A stretch of DNA of 28,240 nt from Candidatus Gastranaerophilales bacterium (GCA_024408745.1 JAKSUS010000001.1:1-28240); one strand, 5' to 3'. Positions 4,994 to 26,224 are shown, numbered from the stretch's first letter. The notes: a model not told the origin generated them from the sequence alone. Numbers and translations are program-made.

Positions 4994-5349
4994 ATGAAAT
5001 ATTTTTTAAAGAAAAGTGTTTGTTTAATCCCGACACAACTAAAAGTTATATTTTAAACGATTACGATATACATAAAAATCAATTAACAGCAGGTGCTATA
5101 TTTCACTTACGACAATTTATTTTAGATAATTTTAAAATTGATGAAAGAGAGGTCAAAATGTGTCAAAAATATACTCAAATTATTAAATACTACAAAGTTC
5201 TTGAAGAACTTGAAAAATTTAAAGAGCAAGGTGTTTTCTTCATACAATATGGACACAAAGAAATCCAATTATCGGCAGAATTAACTGAAAAATTATTGCC
5301 TGTTGTTATAAAACATTATGAAAACAAAATTAAGGAACTTGAACAATGA
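4990..5349 (+). CDS. Hypothetical protein, 119 aa
   Basis: ORF coupled by ATGA overlaps; SD GAGGA. Confidence 0.75.
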   Translation: MNEIFFKEKCLFNPDTTKSYILNDYDIHKNQLTAGAIFHLRQFILDNFKIDEREVKMCQKYTQIIKYYKVLEELEKFKEQGVFFIQYGHKEIQLSAELTEKLLPVVIKHYENKIKELEQ

Positions 5350-5618
5350 AATTATGATACGGATTAGAGCTACACGAATATGAAACAATCGAGAGTGAAG
5401 ATAAGTATTATTGTTTAGAATTATCGCAAAAGAATAATATTATAGGCACTTACAATTTACCTGTTTATGAAGAAAGCGAACCTAGCGACTATGATGTCTT
5501 AGAACAGAAACTTGATAAAATAAATGAAATTGTATCATTTTTGAAATTGGCTGATAAAGATAATAAATTTAAACAATATACTGATAAGATTATTGAGGTG
5601 ATAAATGAGCTTAACTAA
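5346..5618 (+). CDS. Hypothetical protein, 90 aa, with in-frame TGA at codon 4 (read-through gene or pseudogene)
   Basis: ATG AAA TTA TGA TAC GGA...AAC TAA; 86 further sense codons fill the gap between two genes; no later in-frame ATG. Confidence 0.6.
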
Positions 5619-7059: not shown

Positions 7060-7170
7060 ATGGGAAAAATAATAATTGATGAGTTAGTGCAAGACGATAT
7101 TTTAAGAGAAGAATTATATAAAAAGTTAATAAGCCATGTAATTAGTCCAAATGAGGTAGAAAATGAATAA
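7060..7170 (+). CDS. Small hypothetical protein, 36 aa (not in ORF track)
   Basis: MGKIIIDELVQDD...EVENE; SD AAAGGAG. Confidence 0.6.
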   Translation: MGKIIIDELVQDDILREELYKKLISHVISPNEVENE

Positions 7171-7309
7171 CTACGAACGAATTAAAAATAACAACATTGA
7201 GCAAATGGCAGATTTACTTTTTGCTTTTACATTTTATGAAGAAGAAGAAATTGGAGAAGACAATACTAAAATATTAAATTGACTTAAAGCTGAAAGCGAG
7301 GAAGTTTAG
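7163..7309 (+). CDS. Small phage protein, 48 aa, with in-frame TGA at codon 40
   Basis: MNNYERIKNNNIEQMADLL...KILN*LKAESEEV; SD GAGGT; TAG ends 11 nt before the methylase ATG. Confidence 0.6.
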
Positions 7310-7320
7310 GAAGGAAGTAG

Positions 7321-8583
7321 ATGAAACCATTAAGAGTATTAAGTTTATTTGACGGTATAAGTTGCGGTCAAGTGGCTTTTGAGAGAGCTGGTATTCCTAT
7401 TGAAGTTTATTATGCTTCTGAAATTGATAAATATGCAATTCAAATCACACAAAAGAACTATCCTAATACAATTCAATTAGGCGATGTAACAAAGATTGAT
7501 TTTACTCAATTCATAGGCAAGATAGATATTTTAATAGGCGGTAGTCCTTGTCAAGATTTATCAATAGCAGGCAAAAGAAAAGGTTTAAGCGGAGAAAGAA
7601 GCGGACTTTTTTATAAGTATGTCGAAGCACTTGAAACTATAAAACCTAAATACTTTTTGCTTGAAAATAATGTAGGTATGCCAAAAGAAGCATACGAAGA
7701 AATATCAAGACTTATGGGATGTTATCCGGTTGAAATAAATGGTGCTTTGGTATCTGCGCAAAACAGAAAAAGATATTATTGGACTAATATCGGGCCGCAC
7801 TCTTTAAATCTGTTTGGATTTGCAACTTGTCAAATACCACAACCCGAGAACAAAGGTATTTTACTTAAAGATGTTTTAGAAAGTGGATTTTCATATCAAA
7901 ATAAATCAGATTGTTTAACTGCAAGGTATCAAGGTGCTACATTTCCACACGATTACGAAAGAAATCAAAGAACAATGGTTGCAGAACCAATATGTGTAAA
8001 TTCTAAAAGTGGAAATGGAAACACTCAACCGTCTTTATCTGATAGAATTTACTCTGTGGAAGGGAAAAATACAGTTTTAACATCAGGATGGATGCCATAT
8101 ATTGCAGAACCTCTAAGAATACCCGAAGCAACAAAAAAAGGATATGTGGAGATTAATCAAGGGGAATGTGTTGATTTATCTCAACTTAATTCCAAAACTC
8201 GCAGAGGTAGAAATATGAAAGATAAATCAAACGCACTATTAACACAAAACGAATTTTATCAATATATCTCACCTGTGCAATTAGGTCATATATCAAATAC
8301 TAATTCACAAGCAAACAGAGTATATTCAGTTGTTGGTAAATCCGTAACATTAAAAGCAGAGTGTGGCGGTGGTGGAGCAAAAACAGGTCTTTATAAAATA
8401 GATTTGCCTGATGGTGAATATTATATAAGAAAACTAACACCTGTTGAATGTGAGAGATTACAAACACTACCTGACGGATATACAGAGGGAGTAAGTAATA
8501 CTCAAAGATACAAAGCAATAGGCAACGGTTGGACTGTTGATGTTATAGCACATATATTTAGTTTTTTAAAGGAGGAAAAATGA
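7321..8583 (+). CDS. C5-cytosine DNA methyltransferase (Dcm family)
   Basis: VLSLFDG, ASEID, GGSPCQDLS (catalytic PC), ENN, Q.R.R, RKLTPVECERLQ, AIGNG motifs in order. Confidence 0.95.
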   Translation: MKPLRVLSLFDGISCGQVAFERAGIPIEVYYASEIDKYAIQITQKNYPNTIQLGDVTKIDFTQFIGKIDILIGGSPCQDLSIAGKRKGLSGERSGLFYKYVEALETIKPKYFLLENNVGMPKEAYEEISRLMGCYPVEINGALVSAQNRKRYYWTNIGPHSLNLFGFATCQIPQPENKGILLKDVLESGFSYQNKSDCLTARYQGATFPHDYERNQRTMVAEPICVNSKSGNGNTQPSLSDRIYSVEGKNTVLTSGWMPYIAEPLRIPEATKKGYVEINQGECVDLSQLNSKTRRGRNMKDKSNALLTQNEFYQYISPVQLGHISNTNSQANRVYSVVGKSVTLKAECGGGGAKTGLYKIDLPDGEYYIRKLTPVECERLQTLPDGYTEGVSNTQRYKAIGNGWTVDVIAHIFSFLKEEK

Positions 8584-11223: not shown

Positions 11224-12306
11224 ATGGGAAGTTTAAGAAAAAGAGAATGGAAAACCAAAAAAGGCATTTCCATTCGTTATGAATATTCGTATATGCTTTA
11301 TGGGAAGCAATATAAAAAGCTGTTCAAGAAAAAACCAATTCCCCAAGAACTCGTAGCACTCACACAAACAATAGGTGATAATCCTACATTTCAAGAGGCA
11401 TTGAATGATTATATTAATAGTTATTGCGCCCTGCATTGCAAGGCTTCAACTATTGAAACATACCAAAATTACTATGACGTAGGATTAAAACCGCTTTATT
11501 TTCTGCGAGTAAAAACTTATAAAAAAATTGACTTAACTAAGTTTATTATTCAATATAAAGAAAATCACGCACCAAAAACAACAAATAACTTGCTTGTTTT
11601 TCTCAAAGGTTTTTTTAATTGGCTTATTGATGAAAAAATAATTTCAGAAAGTCCGGCAAAGAAAATAAGACCGTTACCGATAGAAAAAGTCGAGGCTAAA
11701 TCACTTGACGAAGAAGATAGAAAGTTATTTGTTTATTGTTTAAAATATGTTCCCGATTGGGTGCAACTTTTCTTTTTAACCATGCTCAATATGGGTTTAA
11801 GAATAAGTGAATGTTTAGCCCTTGAATGGTCTGATATTGATTTTGATAATGCAAAAATGAATATTAATAAACAATATTATCGTTTTAGGGTTACAAGTAC
11901 GAAGAACTACGAAGTAAGAATAATCGACATTCCCGACCATTTGTTAGAGCGATTTAAGAGCGAAAATATAAAATCCAATCTTGTTTTTAATTCGCCTGAA
12001 GCCCCCGGACAATATGCAAGCGTTAATAATTTGCGTGAAAGGTGGTTCGAAAATATAAAAAGAAAAATGGAAGAAATATCAAATAAAGATTTTAGCTGGT
12101 TTACTCCTCACTGTTTACGGCACACTCACGCAACCTATTTACTTTCAAACGGAATTCCGTTATCATATGTAAGTAAACGGTTAGGACATCGTGATACAAA
12201 TACGACATTGAACATTTATAATCACGCTCTACCAAGCGATAATTTAAAAGCATTAAACTTATTAAAAAATTTAAATCAGAGCAAAATTAGAGCAAAAAAA
12301 ACTTAA
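11224..12306 (+). CDS. int: Tyrosine integrase
   Basis: GLRISE.LAL.WSDIDF, TKN, HCLRHT, LGH, YNH catalytic residues; short N-terminal arm-binding domain. Confidence 0.95.
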   Translation: MGSLRKREWKTKKGISIRYEYSYMLYGKQYKKLFKKKPIPQELVALTQTIGDNPTFQEALNDYINSYCALHCKASTIETYQNYYDVGLKPLYFLRVKTYKKIDLTKFIIQYKENHAPKTTNNLLVFLKGFFNWLIDEKIISESPAKKIRPLPIEKVEAKSLDEEDRKLFVYCLKYVPDWVQLFFLTMLNMGLRISECLALEWSDIDFDNAKMNINKQYYRFRVTSTKNYEVRIIDIPDHLLERFKSENIKSNLVFNSPEAPGQYASVNNLRERWFENIKRKMEEISNKDFSWFTPHCLRHTHATYLLSNGIPLSYVSKRLGHRDTNTTLNIYNHALPSDNLKALNLLKNLNQSKIRAKKT

Positions 12307-12503
12307 ATTCAATAATAATCGCAGAGATGTGTCCGAGTGGTTTAAGGTGCAGATTTGAAAGAGCGTATTTTTTAATCTTTTTATATTTTTTAAATAGCCC
12401 TTAAAAGTCAATAAAATAAAGGCTTTTTAAAGAATATAGAATTTTATAATTTTTAAATATTTTTAATGTTTTTAAAACAAATTAGAGCAAAATTAGAGCA
12501 AAA
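12276..12503. mobile_element. attP-like region with two pairs of 11-bp arm repeats
   Basis: TCAGAGCAAAA 12276 and TTAGAGCAAAA at 12287, 12482, 12493 flank a tRNA fragment. Confidence 0.75.
12323..12360 (+). other. 5' half of a class II (Ser-type) tRNA; probable att core, not a complete tRNA
   Basis: AGAGATG-TG-TCCG-AGTGGTTTA-AGGT-G-CAGAT-TT.. gives acceptor 5' strand, D arm and anticodon 5' stem; no T arm or CCA follows. Confidence 0.75.
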
Positions 12504-14310: not shown

Positions 14311-14958
14311 TTATTCCTCATTAACCACAGGCAATTCTTTATTTAAAAACAAATAATCAATATCATCAGGAGTATAACCCAACAATGACCCTACAATATC
14401 AAACAATCTGCCATTACCAAACATAGCACCTCGATAAAATAAATTAGCTCCAAACTCTGCCCCTAGTGCCTTCATATCAACTCCAGTCATTTGAGTTGAA
14501 ATTAATTGTTTAAGGTCATCAAAATTTATTCCTTTTGCTTTAATTAAAGCTCTTTCAACATCAGCAGGAGTTAAAGTTAATTTATCATAGCCTTCAGGAT
14601 TATCAACTATTTCTAAATCTTCAACGATTTTAGTTCTTGTTTCCGTATGGTGTGCTTGAACAAGTATCGTGCTTTCTTCGCCAGTTTCGGGGTCGATAAT
14701 AGTTTCCTCAACCATTTTTGGATATGGTTCTTGTATAATAACGGTTTCCATAATCGGTTCACCTGTTTCAGGGTCGAACATAGGTTCGCCTGTTTCAGGG
14801 TCAATTTTTTGTCTTGTTATTTCTTTTTCAACATAATTCCACTCTAAAACTTCAACATCATACTCAACTTCTTTTTGAACTATAACAAGAATTTTTCCTT
14901 GCTCATTAGCTTCAATTGCTTTATTAGAGTATGTAATTTCATCAAATAATCTTTCCAT
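14311..14958 (-). CDS. Tail-associated protein, possible fibre chaperone, with DPETGE repeats
   Basis: Directly after tail fibre; C-terminus parallels 17491-17943. Confidence 0.55.
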   Translation of the reverse strand: MERLFDEITYSNKAIEANEQGKILVIVQKEVEYDVEVLEWNYVEKEITRQKIDPETGEPMFDPETGEPIMETVIIQEPYPKMVEETIIDPETGEESTILVQAHHTETRTKIVEDLEIVDNPEGYDKLTLTPADVERALIKAKGINFDDLKQLISTQMTGVDMKALGAEFGANLFYRGAMFGNGRLFDIVGSLLGYTPDDIDYLFLNKELPVVNEE

Positions 14959-17117
14959 TATCCCAATACCACCTTTCCTTTTGCAATATATTCACCACTT
15001 GCTGATGGCGTAAACCCTGTTGCGGTTTTTGCGCTATAAGGTACAGATAAAGCATAATTAGTATCTTTGAACGGCTTTGGTAAAGTTACAGCAGTACCGC
15101 TTGTACAAGAACCTGTTTGAGTACAATCTAAATTTGTATCATATTCCCAACTTGTAACACCGTTTTTATACCAATCAACAATAGTAACGTGTCCGTCTAA
15201 GTTTTCACCCATAGGAACGGTAAAATCAGTATCAGATAATGTATAATAATTAGCCCAGCCAAATTGTTCATACATATCTTGAACTCTATCACGATATATT
15301 GCATTAACTATCTTAGAACCTGTTTTAGATTGGTTATAAGGTATTTTTAAAGTTGGTTGGTAGACAAGATTGCCGTCAACATAGATTTTGAATGAGTTTA
15401 GGTCGATAGAACCGTTATAGGCTAATTGTGGGATATTATCTCCACTATACCCTATACGCAAACTTAAACTTGTATAGGCACTTGTTAAAGTATTTGTATA
15501 AGTCGTATAATCTATACCATTAGTTGAAATCATTAAATATGCGGAATTATTTTTAGCTCCACCTTTAATCCAATAATAGGTATCTGTTTGTAATGGATAA
15601 TTTGGAAGTATTCCATTAAAATAATGTGAGTTAGAACCTGCAAATATTTTACCATCTCTAATACCTATAGAGAATAAATTTTGTATAGAATTTTGCCCAG
15701 AAATCATATAGGAAGATTGTACAAATGAAGATGATGTAAGCTGTTTACCTAAATCTATTTCAAAATCTTTATTTGTTACATCTATACTCAAAATATCTAT
15801 ATAGTTATCACTACTAAACCCACTAGCAATACCACCATCAGTAATTGTAGGACTTCCAACAACCGTATAATCATCCTTCTTGATTTGGTCTATGCCTGTT
15901 TTATTACCGTTAAAAACCTCAACTCCATCAACTGTGATAGAGAATTGTTTAAGGTCGATAGAACCTGAGCCATAGGCCCCTGCATCTATGCCTAAATATC
16001 CTATTATTATACCATTTTGATTATATGTTTTAGGTGGATATGTACTTGCTTTTTTTGTGCCGTCAGTCCAATTTTTACCGTCATTAGACTTAGATACCCA
16101 ATAATAATTACCATCCCATTCAACTTTTAAAAATAACTCTGTATTTGCAGGGATATTAAGTAATATTGGAGTTATATCAGTATCATTTCCATCATTTACA
16201 TGATTCCAAAATGTTAGATTATTATCACTATTTATTATTAAAACACTATAATAAGCTGTAGTGCCTATTTTACAAATATACCTATTTGTATTTATTGTAC
16301 CTGTATTTACTTTCATAATTATTTTAAATGGTTTAGAGTTAAAAGCGGGCAAATCATAAGTCAAATAGTTGCTATTACTAAATCCACTAGCAATCCCATC
16401 ATCAGTAATCGTAGGACTGCCTACAACTGTAAACTTGGAACGGTCAAAAGTGCTTCTGTTCCAAGCATGTAAATCCGCAAGTCCTTTTGCTTCTGTTTGA
16501 GGATTTTCATAGTTTGTATATGCAGGCATTGCACTTGAATTTTCTGTTCATTTTGCAATTAAATCATGTTGATTTAATAAATTGCCTGTAATTCCACCCC
16601 ATTCTACTGAACCAGCAGCACCGTTTGAAACAACAAAATCAAAATGTGTACCATTTGAAAATGTCATACGATATGTTCTGTCCAATCCAACAGTAGAAAT
16701 AAGAGTTACACCTGTAACAGAAACACCTGTTGCACCTGTATCACCCGTTGCCCCTTTTAAGTTTTGAAAAGCAAAAGCAAAAGTCCTATCTGTACTTGTA
16801 CCACCTCGTGTAACAGTACAAGAGGGAACACCCACATTGTTATCAACCGTAGCGGTAATTTGTGAAATATCTGCTGATGTTCCATCTTGACCATTTGTAA
16901 CATTAAAGGTATCAGTTTCTTCATTGTCATAAGTAATTGTATATGTATCAACTAAACCACTTGTAGAAGTTTTTTCAATACTTACAATACCGTTTCCTTG
17001 AGGACCTCTTGCTCCTGTATTACCTGTATCACCTTTCGGTCCTTGTGGTCCCTGCGGTCCTTGCGGTCCTTGTGGACCAAAAACAGGATGAGTTTGTATA
17101 GTAACTGTTTCGCTCAT
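14958..17117 (-). CDS. Tail fibre / receptor-binding protein, 719 aa if TGA 16548-16550 is read (ORF track splits it into 189 aa and 523 aa)
   Basis: Collagen GXY repeats, WGGITG.L.NQ.DL motif, two LamG/ConA-like modules; both ORFs in frame, 18 nt apart, no SD before ATG 16529. Confidence 0.7.
16989..17078 (-). repeat. Ten collagen-like Gly-X-Y triplets
   Basis: [30 protein letters not shown]. Confidence 0.9.
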
Positions 17118-24069: not shown

Positions 24070-24729
24070 TTAAATATAAAATACTGTATCGCTTTCAACA
24101 GGTTGGCAACCTCTTAAAAATATGTTCCATTTTTGCTCGAATATATCAAATGTGGGCTTCCACCTTGGGTTAGATTGTTTTCTCATATTTGTTGCTAAAA
24201 CATAATATTCAAGCGCATCAAAATATAAATGTTGGAATTTTTCAGGCATTTTTAGAGTTGACCCAATCGAAATATAATAGCTGAGTGTTTCGTCGGTTAA
24301 TATTACGTTTTTAGTAGAATTATATTCAATAACTGCATTATAGCTTTTATCGGGTGTAGGATATATTTTTATTTTTTCAGGGTTATAAACAACCTCAAAT
24401 AATTGTGGTTTGCCTTTATTTTCATCTAATAATGCAATATCAGAATAATACTTTAATTTTTCAATTCTATTATCATTTTTAATTCTTATTTCAGTAATTC
24501 TGCCGTCAATAGGTTGATACAAATTCTGTCCTTTTGTAAATACAATATTTTTAGTATATTTCGCAAACGGGAAATCCTCTCTATTTGATAATTCAGAGTG
24601 GCAACCTTGCTGAATACGACGCATTCCGATAAATTCTTCACTCGTTTTATCTTCCATATCCTCGGGGTCTATCATACTCATTGGAATTGTAGCAGTATCT
24701 ATTAACGATTGGTCAAATGTTTTACCCAT
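24070..24729 (-). CDS. Head-tail adaptor protein
   Basis: GKP..F......I.IYPTPD..Y...EY and MPEKF..L patterns. Confidence 0.65.
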   Translation of the reverse strand: MGKTFDQSLIDTATIPMSMIDPEDMEDKTSEEFIGMRRIQQGCHSELSNREDFPFAKYTKNIVFTKGQNLYQPIDGRITEIRIKNDNRIEKLKYYSDIALLDENKGKPQLFEVVYNPEKIKIYPTPDKSYNAVIEYNSTKNVILTDETLSYYISIGSTLKMPEKFQHLYFDALEYYVLATNMRKQSNPRWKPTFDIFEQKWNIFLRGCQPVESDTVFYI

Positions 24730-25592
24730 TATTTCATACCTTTAATTGCTTTAATTACGTCATCTTTTTTTGTTGAAGAAAGTTTAATATTATTTTCTTT
24801 GCAATATGCAAGCATTTCTTTATAACTCATTTTTTCAATGTCTTTTTCTTCTTTTTTTTCTCTTAATTCAGTAAGCATTTTTACGCACAAACCGTTGTAA
24901 TTTAACTCTGTTTCACCGTTTAAAATTAAATGTTTCTTTTCAGGTGGCAAGATTGAACCAATAACCAAACCGCTTTCAATACTTTTATTGTTTTTACCCT
25001 CTGTCCATACTTCATATCGACAATTTTCGTTAAATGCGTGTATTTCAAGTAATGTTTTTTTTCTTGGTGCCGTTGCACCTAATAATTTTTCTTCATCTGT
25101 AATTGGCATTAATTCTTCTTTCATAGTTAAAAACTCCTTAATTTTCAAATGCGGAATGTCAAACACTCCGTTTTCTGAATATTTATACATATTTATATAT
25201 GGCTTTAATTCATTTACGCATTTTCTGTTGTAGTTTTGAAAATCTGCTTTTATATCTCTATTATTACTCATCTGATTATTGGCAACTAAAAGAACGGAAT
25301 CATATCTTTTATAAATCAAATAATCGAGGCATAAAATAAGCGAACTATTGCGATTAGGCAAATAATGACCGTCAATAACCCCTTTTTTATCTCTATCATA
25401 ATTTATGCTTATAACAGGACAACTATCGCAATTTAAACATTTATCAACAATATCATCAGCGCATAATCTTATGTTAGGCTTTAATTCGGCACAATAATTG
25501 TTGCATGCGATTTTAAATACATCCGTATTTTTTAAAAGTTCTTTTTCTTCTTCTGTAATATCTGCATAAGTTAATATTATTGCTTTAGCCAT
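24729..25592 (-). CDS. Glycosyltransferase-like (Maf/DUF115/GT29-like) domain fused to a C-terminal HeH/Rho-N-like domain
   Basis: IACNN...P.IRLCAD and SSLILCLDYLIYKRYDSVLLVA resemble that fold; tail IEKMSYKEML.YCKENNI......KDDVIKAI. Confidence 0.45.
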   Translation of the reverse strand: MAKAIILTYADITEEEKELLKNTDVFKIACNNYCAELKPNIRLCADDIVDKCLNCDSCPVISINYDRDKKGVIDGHYLPNRNSSLILCLDYLIYKRYDSVLLVANNQMSNNRDIKADFQNYNRKCVNELKPYINMYKYSENGVFDIPHLKIKEFLTMKEELMPITDEEKLLGATAPRKKTLLEIHAFNENCRYEVWTEGKNNKSIESGLVIGSILPPEKKHLILNGETELNYNGLCVKMLTELREKKEEKDIEKMSYKEMLAYCKENNIKLSSTKKDDVIKAIKGMK

Positions 25593-26224
25593 AAGTCCAT
25601 ATCCTTTTTGTCCGAGCTTGGAAAATGCAAAATAACAGGATTATTACATGCTCTTTCTCCATAATCCCTTTTATAACAATAATTCCATTTCTCGTTTACT
25701 AATTTTATTTTGTCGTGGAAGCACCAATTTATTATAGTTTCATCTGCACTAAACGGCTCTTGTTTACCTATTGCGCCTTTCCAATTATCTTTAATTTGTT
25801 TAAAATAGTTTTCTTTGTTCATAAGCGATATATTAAACATCATCATGCCGGAACACGTATAATAGGGAAGTCCTAACTGTTTAGCTTGAATATCTGAATA
25901 TAAATGCCCTCTTGTTGCTAAAATATAATTATTTTCAAAATCAACATTAAATAAAGGCTCTAAACTACCTAAACAAACAGTATCACAATCAAGATACAAT
26001 GCTTTTTTAAGTTTGGGAAAATACTTTGGAATTAATAACCGCAAAAAACAAGCCTTTGAAACATGTTTAAATCCGCATAACTCATAAGTAAATTCTTTTA
26101 ATTCATTATTAATATCTTTTCTAATTGTATGTATTTTTGCTTGCGGGTTGTGTTTTAAAATACTTTCTTTAGACTTGTTAAATAATTCTTTGTAATTTTC
26201 ATCAAAACAATAAATTACATCCAT
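25577..26224 (-). CDS. Glycosyltransferase family 8
   Basis: YCFDENY, RLLIP, LYLDCD (DxD), SGMM.FN, DE..IN, WNY, ILHF. Confidence 0.92.
   Translation of the reverse strand: MDVIYCFDENYKELFNKSKESILKHNPQAKIHTIRKDINNELKEFTYELCGFKHVSKACFLRLLIPKYFPKLKKALYLDCDTVCLGSLEPLFNVDFENNYILATRGHLYSDIQAKQLGLPYYTCSGMMMFNISLMNKENYFKQIKDNWKGAIGKQEPFSADETIINWCFHDKIKLVNEKWNYCYKRDYGERACNNPVILHFPSSDKKDMDLWLKQ

Follow-up and report, generated by a model that had tools for sequence, protein, structure and literature searches.

The 28,240-nt window, an entire contig of ~31% G+C, comes from a temperate phage, and a tail-fibre gene on its minus strand is interrupted after 189 codons by a single in-frame TGA. We take this, with a probability of about 0.6, to be a recent, lineage-specific opal nonsense allele of a fibre gene that is normally a single ORF, with read-through that is at most incidental. 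The TGA, recent on this account, sits in the linker between a virion-proximal part and a lectin-like receptor-binding part, and the phage that carries the broken fibre would be a temperate phage of a Gastranaerophilales-type gut bacterium. Its main product would be a 189-aa stub, with full-length fibre arising only in traces, through background decoding of UGA by tRNA-Trp(CCA); some reinitiation at an ATG at 16529 may perhaps also yield a free C-terminal part. The allele is probably polymorphic, and it may persist as UGA is the leakiest stop, rather than for any function of the break.

The fibre gene and its homologues

The whole frame extends over 719 codons on the minus strand (14958-17117), the in-frame TGA included, and ends with TAA at 14958. 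Its N-terminal piece (16548-17117, 189 aa) has a strong Shine-Dalgarno (SD) sequence, GAGGGGG, with a predicted anti-SD pairing of -10.6 kcal/mol, and it stops three residues past a 14-residue motif, WGxIxGxLxxQxDL. The opal codon (16548-16550, context AAA TGA A) stands at residue 190; six sense codons (T E N S S A, 16530-16547) separate it from the ATG (16527-16529) that has been taken as the start of a 523-aa C-terminal piece (14958-16529). The sequence-only reading had given the minus strand here as ...GAT TTA ATT GCA AAA TGA ACA GAA AAT TCA AGT GCA ATG CCT, with the 189-aa and 523-aa ORFs in frame and six sense codons apart, and it is correct in every detail. A 6-bp inverted repeat (ATTGCA ... 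TGCAAT, 16527-16560, minus strand) flanks the TGA and ends at the ATG; its fold is no better than those of shuffled sequences.

Sequence comparison shows that both ORFs belong to a single tail-fibre gene, each being one half of it. More than 2,000 relatives were found with the fused frame, many of them single proteins of 720-1017 aa that span 90-98% of the frame (best match E = 7e-144, 97% coverage). The single-ORF homologues across the junction that the idea of one fibre calls for were thus found, covering 94-98% of the fused frame. The closest full-length fibres are 36-45% identical over up to 98% of it (alignment A1), too distant for the ancestral codon at the TGA to be read. In 14 aligned homologues (720-1017 aa) the junction is unbroken, with no stop at the site, and the WGGIxGxLxxQxDL motif, the linker, its 'A-L-K-x-Y' element and a second conserved 14-residue module are continuous in all of them. 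The TGA aligns with a variable position of the homologues (D/E/N/G), and ATG 16529 with a hydrophobic residue (L/I) inside the conserved hALKxY-type linker; P0019, on L102, the closest linker relative, has ATT (Ile) at the matching codon. The six codons TENSSA are no intergenic spacer: they are homologous to the linker of the single-ORF relatives, and homology to L102/P0019 begins with them. Since homology to single-ORF proteins crosses the stop, these are not two neighbouring genes that share a frame by chance.

The pattern to be expected of two genes, with homologues consistently split and ending in TAA or TAG at this place, is not what the related loci have. In all 36 of them (viral and genome collections) the conserved 14-residue module lies in one ORF with its own start, behind at least 46 residues; in the C-terminal piece it is preceded by ~25, as against at least 46 in every homologue. 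The host's order (301 genomes searched) yielded 28 matches, in 21 genomes besides this one, and none of them has an internal stop; the window alone was flagged '1 TGA' among the fibre homologues in the genomes searched. The motif WGxIxGxLxxQxDL had been said usually to lie inside longer proteins, and so it does: it is at least 17 residues from the C-terminus in 26 homologues, against three residues from the stop here, and none of the short homologues of the N part only (best 120 matches, 104-330 aa) terminates just past it. That the homologues, 36 loci and 21 genomes are unbroken at the junction is the first reason for reading the TGA as a nonsense allele.

The second concerns the start of the downstream piece. 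ATG 16529 had been noted to have no ribosome site, and this is borne out by a predicted anti-SD pairing of 0.0 kcal/mol, which ranks 45th among 48 starts (median ~-6); the codon is an ordinary internal one. TTG 16364, the start of the recorded 468-aa protein P0001, is also without an SD (+0.6). The nonsense-allele reading thus draws on an ATG that aligns with Leu or Ile, does not pair with the anti-SD and is ATT in the Logan contig described below.

An AlphaFold2 model of the fused frame (mean pLDDT 73.5) predicts a Gly-X-Y run (residues ~14-43), small beta domains (~44-164), a low-confidence helical neck (~166-220), two laminin-G/lectin-like beta-sandwich domains (~230-585) and a conserved C-terminal domain (~590-719). 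The TGA, at residue 190, falls within this predicted neck, which has the N-terminal beta domains on one side and the laminin-G/lectin-like ones on the other. Foldseek matches include laminin LG4-5, neurexin LNS and a galectin tandem (E down to 8e-11), and PF13385 is present in fibre homologues. The N part, with ~10 Gly-X-Y triplets (Pfam Collagen E = 0.001, below the cut-off), matches PHROG tail-fibre families. Full-length homology and tail-module context, together with a predicted distal laminin-G/concanavalin-like beta-sandwich, place the protein among collagen-like/LG-domain phage tail fibres, and it is probably trimeric. The C part had been called the receptor-binding end, which the two modelled laminin-G/lectin-like domains and the conserved C-terminal domain make plausible. 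In phages of gut Melainabacteria (Gastranaerophilales), a host group for which no cultured phage is known, host recognition is the likely role of this LG-domain distal part.

Phage, host and the meaning of UGA

On one side of the fibre gene are late genes and on the other the DUF1353/lysis genes, an arrangement that its relatives share. The late genes on the minus strand are those for capsid, GT8, fibre, DUF1353 and M15 endolysin; an HNH-like ORF (Pfam matches below cut-off) lies in the same late region. The early genes on the plus strand comprise a PD-(D/E)XK nuclease, YopX, a C5 methylase and a weak RecT-like match (below the Pfam cut-off), and the integrase gene (11224-12306) also belongs to the early region. 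Directly past the integrase gene, at 12324-12351, 27 of 28 bases match the 5' part of a tRNA-Ser(GGA) gene that is intact on another contig (G000:C151:2781-2808) of the metagenome-assembled genome (MAG) that holds the window contig (1.26 Mb, 66% complete). This match identifies the contig as an excised attP form, from which it follows that the phage is probably replicating, and it makes the MAG a credible and likely host. No other sequence is common to the contig and the rest of the MAG. The contigs that bear fibre homologues are titled Gastranaerophilales or Melainabacteria.

No terminase or portal gene was recognised in the contig (Pfam, PHROG), so that the phage genome is incomplete, and the contig has no terminal repeat. 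No close phage relative was found in INPHARED, by DNA or by protein, and IMG/VR, queried with a single sequence, returned no relative. Two further observations concern the gene content. In the head/late module, two overlapping genes (24729-26224, minus strand) adjoin the capsid gene; one encodes a GT8 glycosyltransferase (Pfam 1.2e-26), the other an unknown protein. The C5 cytosine methylase (7321-8583, plus strand) has an identical protein recorded under GCA_024500545.1, unlike other contig proteins, which are recorded under GCA_024500515.1; the phage, whole or in part, may also occur in another MAG from that study.

In both phage and host, TGA works as a stop. It ends 11 of the 43 window ORFs, in some cases within ATGA start/stop overlaps (4990 and 8580). 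The prfB gene of the host MAG, which encodes RF2, is intact (475.7 bits), and ORFs in code 11 span 93% of the MAG; TGA is not in excess among same-frame ORF pairs, either in the host MAG or in the related phage loci (12 of 81 pairs, against 14% stop use). On the strength of that code-11 cover, the intact prfB and the lack of TGA excess, code 4 or 25 was rejected for the host. As a separate observation, TGA terminates 26% of the phage ORFs (11/43) as against 8% of long host ORFs (76/922).

Signals that might recode the fibre TGA were looked for on the RNA and among the tRNAs. The 121 nt from the stop fold no better than shuffled sequences (z = +0.58), giving no RNA structure past the TGA, and the window has no Rfam match. 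Selenocysteine at the TGA was rejected, with no hairpin 3' of it and no Rfam SECIS match. There are no tRNA genes in the window and no suppressor tRNA with a UCA anticodon in the MAG, which is 66% complete. A true stop, an intact prfB, no fold and no suppressor tRNA are further reasons for the nonsense-allele reading. Two more are the small gain in coding density with TGA read as sense, 2.1 points (from 0.915 to 0.936), and the finding that, of the stops in E. coli reporters, TGA is the most prone to error (PMC11126739).

One feature of the host's relatives is a lead only. The tRNA-Trp(CCA) of a same-genus genome (G015; L085:1500-1574, minus strand) has, according to Rfam and ARAGORN, a normal 5-bp anticodon stem and a U11-A24 pair in the D-stem, as in the Hirsh G24A UGA suppressor of E. 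coli (PMC13092985). Such a tRNA could raise UGA read-through in this genus. The '4-bp stem' mechanism of read-through described in the same paper is excluded for it by the 5-bp stem.

The sequence-only reading had proposed a 719-aa fibre made by read-through. The homologues uphold its single fibre gene of 719 codons; read-through as a designed mechanism finds no support. A programmed site should have a conserved stop, which is absent from the 14 homologues, 36 loci and 21 genomes, and a stimulatory context or structure, of which there is no sign, the three in-frame TGAs of the contig (two of them described below) being followed by A, T and C. Neither of the two uses that had been suggested for it, short and long fibres in a set ratio or a host-dependent switch, is borne out: the TGA is confined to this contig among the loci and genomes compared, RNA structure and suppressor tRNA are lacking, the RF2 gene of the host is intact, and the junction is polymorphic. 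Read-through can be claimed here only as incidental leakiness. A homotrimer would, moreover, require three read-through chains, so that a few percent of read-through per chain would give almost no complete trimers.

Other opal codons, the second haplotype and competing explanations

Two more in-frame TGAs lie on the plus strand of the window. The first (7280-7282) replaces a conserved Trp in a small gene of 48 codons (7163-7309). TGG stands at this site in L056, L057 and L058 (96% nt identity) and in the more distant L059; the gene (144 nt) is the sole part that those phages have in common with this one at high identity (96%), and is a small mobile gene. From this comparison, the codon is a TGG-to-TGA transition in this lineage, and its being TGG in four relatives implies that changes of the TGG-to-TGA type occur in the lineage, which also speaks for the nonsense-allele reading of the fibre TGA. 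The other (5355-5357) is codon 4 of an open 90-codon frame (5346-5618) that occupies a 255-bp gap between genes; it is reproduced exactly in an independent Logan contig (L055, run SRR17543911), for which the gene caller picked TGA=W. This frame has no homologues in 5.8 billion proteins, and PHROG and phage tblastn searches with both small TGA-containing genes returned nothing. Of the three sites, then, one is at a conserved Trp, the fibre TGA is at the variable D/E/N/G, and the 5355 site is without homologues.

The in-frame breaks of the contig are thus three TGA and no TAA or TAG, with P ~0.01 under neutral mutation, the share of TGA expected among random nonsense mutations being 22-24% from contig codon usage. 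The other same-frame ORF pairs in the contig, eight in all, have ordinary TAA or TAG junctions with SD sites. Plain nonsense should be lineage-specific, and the fibre break is, being unique to the window and paralleled at 7280 by a codon that is TGG in relatives; it should also draw on a random spectrum of disabling mutations, and only TGA breaks are seen. This bias is the one feature that simple neutral decay leaves unexplained. It fits the known leakiness of UGA, and suggests that a leaky UGA softens such opal mutations, a TGG-to-TGA change being partly self-correcting when tRNA-Trp misreads UGA.

The same bias also heads the points that weigh against a nonsense allele, since three TGA breaks in three (P ~0.01) hint at TGA-specific tolerance or use. 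It is odd, in addition, that a phage in the attP form, and so probably replicating, should be without a working fibre. It also counts against the nonsense allele that no relative is near enough to give the ancestral codon, and that coverage is low (~6x).

The first competitor, which we consider unlikely, is that read-through is used or maintained: a leaky UGA would give mostly stubs and a minority of full fibres in a ratio that is tolerated or selected, and with its three opal codons the phage would be at an early stage of using TGA as Trp. The three in-frame TGAs without a TAA or TAG break (P ~0.01), one of them at a conserved Trp, speak for it, as do the U11-A24 tRNA-Trp(CCA) of the same-genus genome, with TGA as the leakiest stop, the attP form that suggests an active phage, and the use of TGA as terminator in 26% of the phage ORFs but 8% of those of the host. 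It is opposed by the lack of any relative with a stop at the fibre site, by same-frame pairs with no TGA excess in related phage loci or host, and by the lack of structure and of a shared context (3' bases A, T and C); a homotrimer would also need all three of its chains to be read through.

Next, and improbable in its turn, is that the TGA is not the functional genotype: it would belong to a minority haplotype or a mixed consensus, and the propagating phage would have an intact fibre gene. Only one public run contains the phage (X1), at ~6x depth and in the form of Logan contigs (SRR17543911), and these break between 16565 and 16568, L103 ending at 16568. The Logan contig that runs over the TGA ends 15 nt from it; it is the same as the window for 1374 nt and has three differences, all confined to its last 64 nt. 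One of them (16502) changes Pro to Ser, and another (16527) changes ATG to ATT, the state of the closest relative L102; these two imply that a second haplotype exists at the junction, and the second implies that the putative start codon is not fixed. The third falls within about 16535-16565, and may or may not be in the TGA, so that it need not help this explanation. The exact reproduction of the 5355 TGA in a Logan contig counts against it, since opal codons in this phage are then not generally assembler artefacts.

We think it unlikely that UGA is decoded as Trp at a useful rate in the Gastranaerophilales host, in whose genus the U11-A24 tRNA-Trp(CCA) occurs; in that case its phages could carry in-frame opal codons as an incipient, tRNA-independent step of recoding to TGA=Trp that throttles a late receptor-binding protein.

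A functional split into two polypeptides is less probable again. Termination-reinitiation coupling is known in bacteria, and by reinitiation at the SD-less ATG 16529 a free C part could be made and then attach to the N part. The distance from the stop to the ATG is 18 nt, and the ATG would be a derived change beside the stop if ATT is ancestral. There are, besides, natural two-gene fibres at two loci, L006 (3325-6512) and L018 (4072-6503), where a repeat-rich proximal protein is followed by a 544-547-aa distal LG-domain protein. That distal protein, however, has its own N-terminus of 46-55 aa, as against ~25 linker residues here, and its gene overlaps, by ATGA, another kind of fibre gene upstream; the ATG of the window is not fixed within the sample, and no relative is split at this place.

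A phage-specific code 4 (TGA=Trp), brought about by a suppressor tRNA, or some other factor, that the unrecovered part of the phage genome would encode, is very improbable: in-frame TGAs of which one is in a late gene, as recoded gut phages also have (10.1101/2021.08.26.457843), suppressor tRNAs that were detected in only 35% of TGA-recoded genomes (same source), an incomplete contig without terminase and portal, and the TGA=W chosen for L055 can be cited for it, against a density gain of 2.1 points, where Borges et al. (bioRxiv 10.1101/2021.08.26.457843) require more than 10% of a recoded phage in contigs of 5-100 kb, 96 TGG codons in the contig to three in-frame TGAs, and a TGA that still terminates 11 of 43 ORFs, some with ATGA overlaps, with no suppressor tRNA in window or MAG.

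Comparison with known systems

For annotation, the 189-aa and 468/523-aa proteins are to be read as one interrupted tail-fibre gene. If the opal breaks were fixed and read through, they would be a natural example of the onset of recoding in a phage that infects a host with the standard code; should the population be mixed, the contig would be a snapshot of a defective variant.

In lambda PaPa, a frameshift reportedly splits the side tail fibre gene, stf, into orf401 and orf314, as is said to have been described by Hendrix and Duda in 1992. The likeness to the present case is considerable: relatives have the fibre as one ORF, which in one lineage a point lesion has broken into an N-terminal stub and a C-terminal ORF without start signals of its own, and the phage still replicates. 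The lesion here is an in-frame opal codon, unlike that of lambda PaPa, so that some full-length protein is possible by read-through, and the phage of the window is an uncultured one from the gut, known from one low-coverage assembly.

The A1 protein of phage Q-beta is made by programmed read-through of UGA by tRNA-Trp. In both cases UGA stands between a structural N part and a C-terminal extension linked to infection, and a near-cognate tRNA-Trp would decode it. In Q-beta, however, the coat gene ends at this stop, which is conserved, and neither product is dispensable, whereas the stop of the window is absent from all relatives examined and lies inside the conserved linker of a probably trimeric fibre.

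TGA-recoded gut phages (10.1101/2021.08.26.457843) also have late structural genes with in-frame TGA in a host of standard code, as here, where one of the TGAs is at a conserved Trp. The window departs from them in its three in-frame TGAs against 96 TGG, in the 2.1-point gain in density, in the quarter of its ORFs that TGA ends, and in the lack of a suppressor tRNA among the genes found.

The two-gene fibres of L006 and L018 indicate that an LG-domain distal part can be a separate polypeptide in this family; unlike the window, they have an upstream protein that is unrelated to its N part. The single-ORF fibres of phages and prophages associated with Gastranaerophilales (P0002, P0004, P0017 and others; loci L003-L054) have the same order of modules: a Gly-X-Y run, TSGLVDTY-type repeats, WGGIxGxLxxQxDL, the helical linker, the second conserved 14-residue module, two LG-like domains and the C-terminal domain. 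The linker of the window is five residues shorter than theirs and bears the TGA; these fibres are all uninterrupted.
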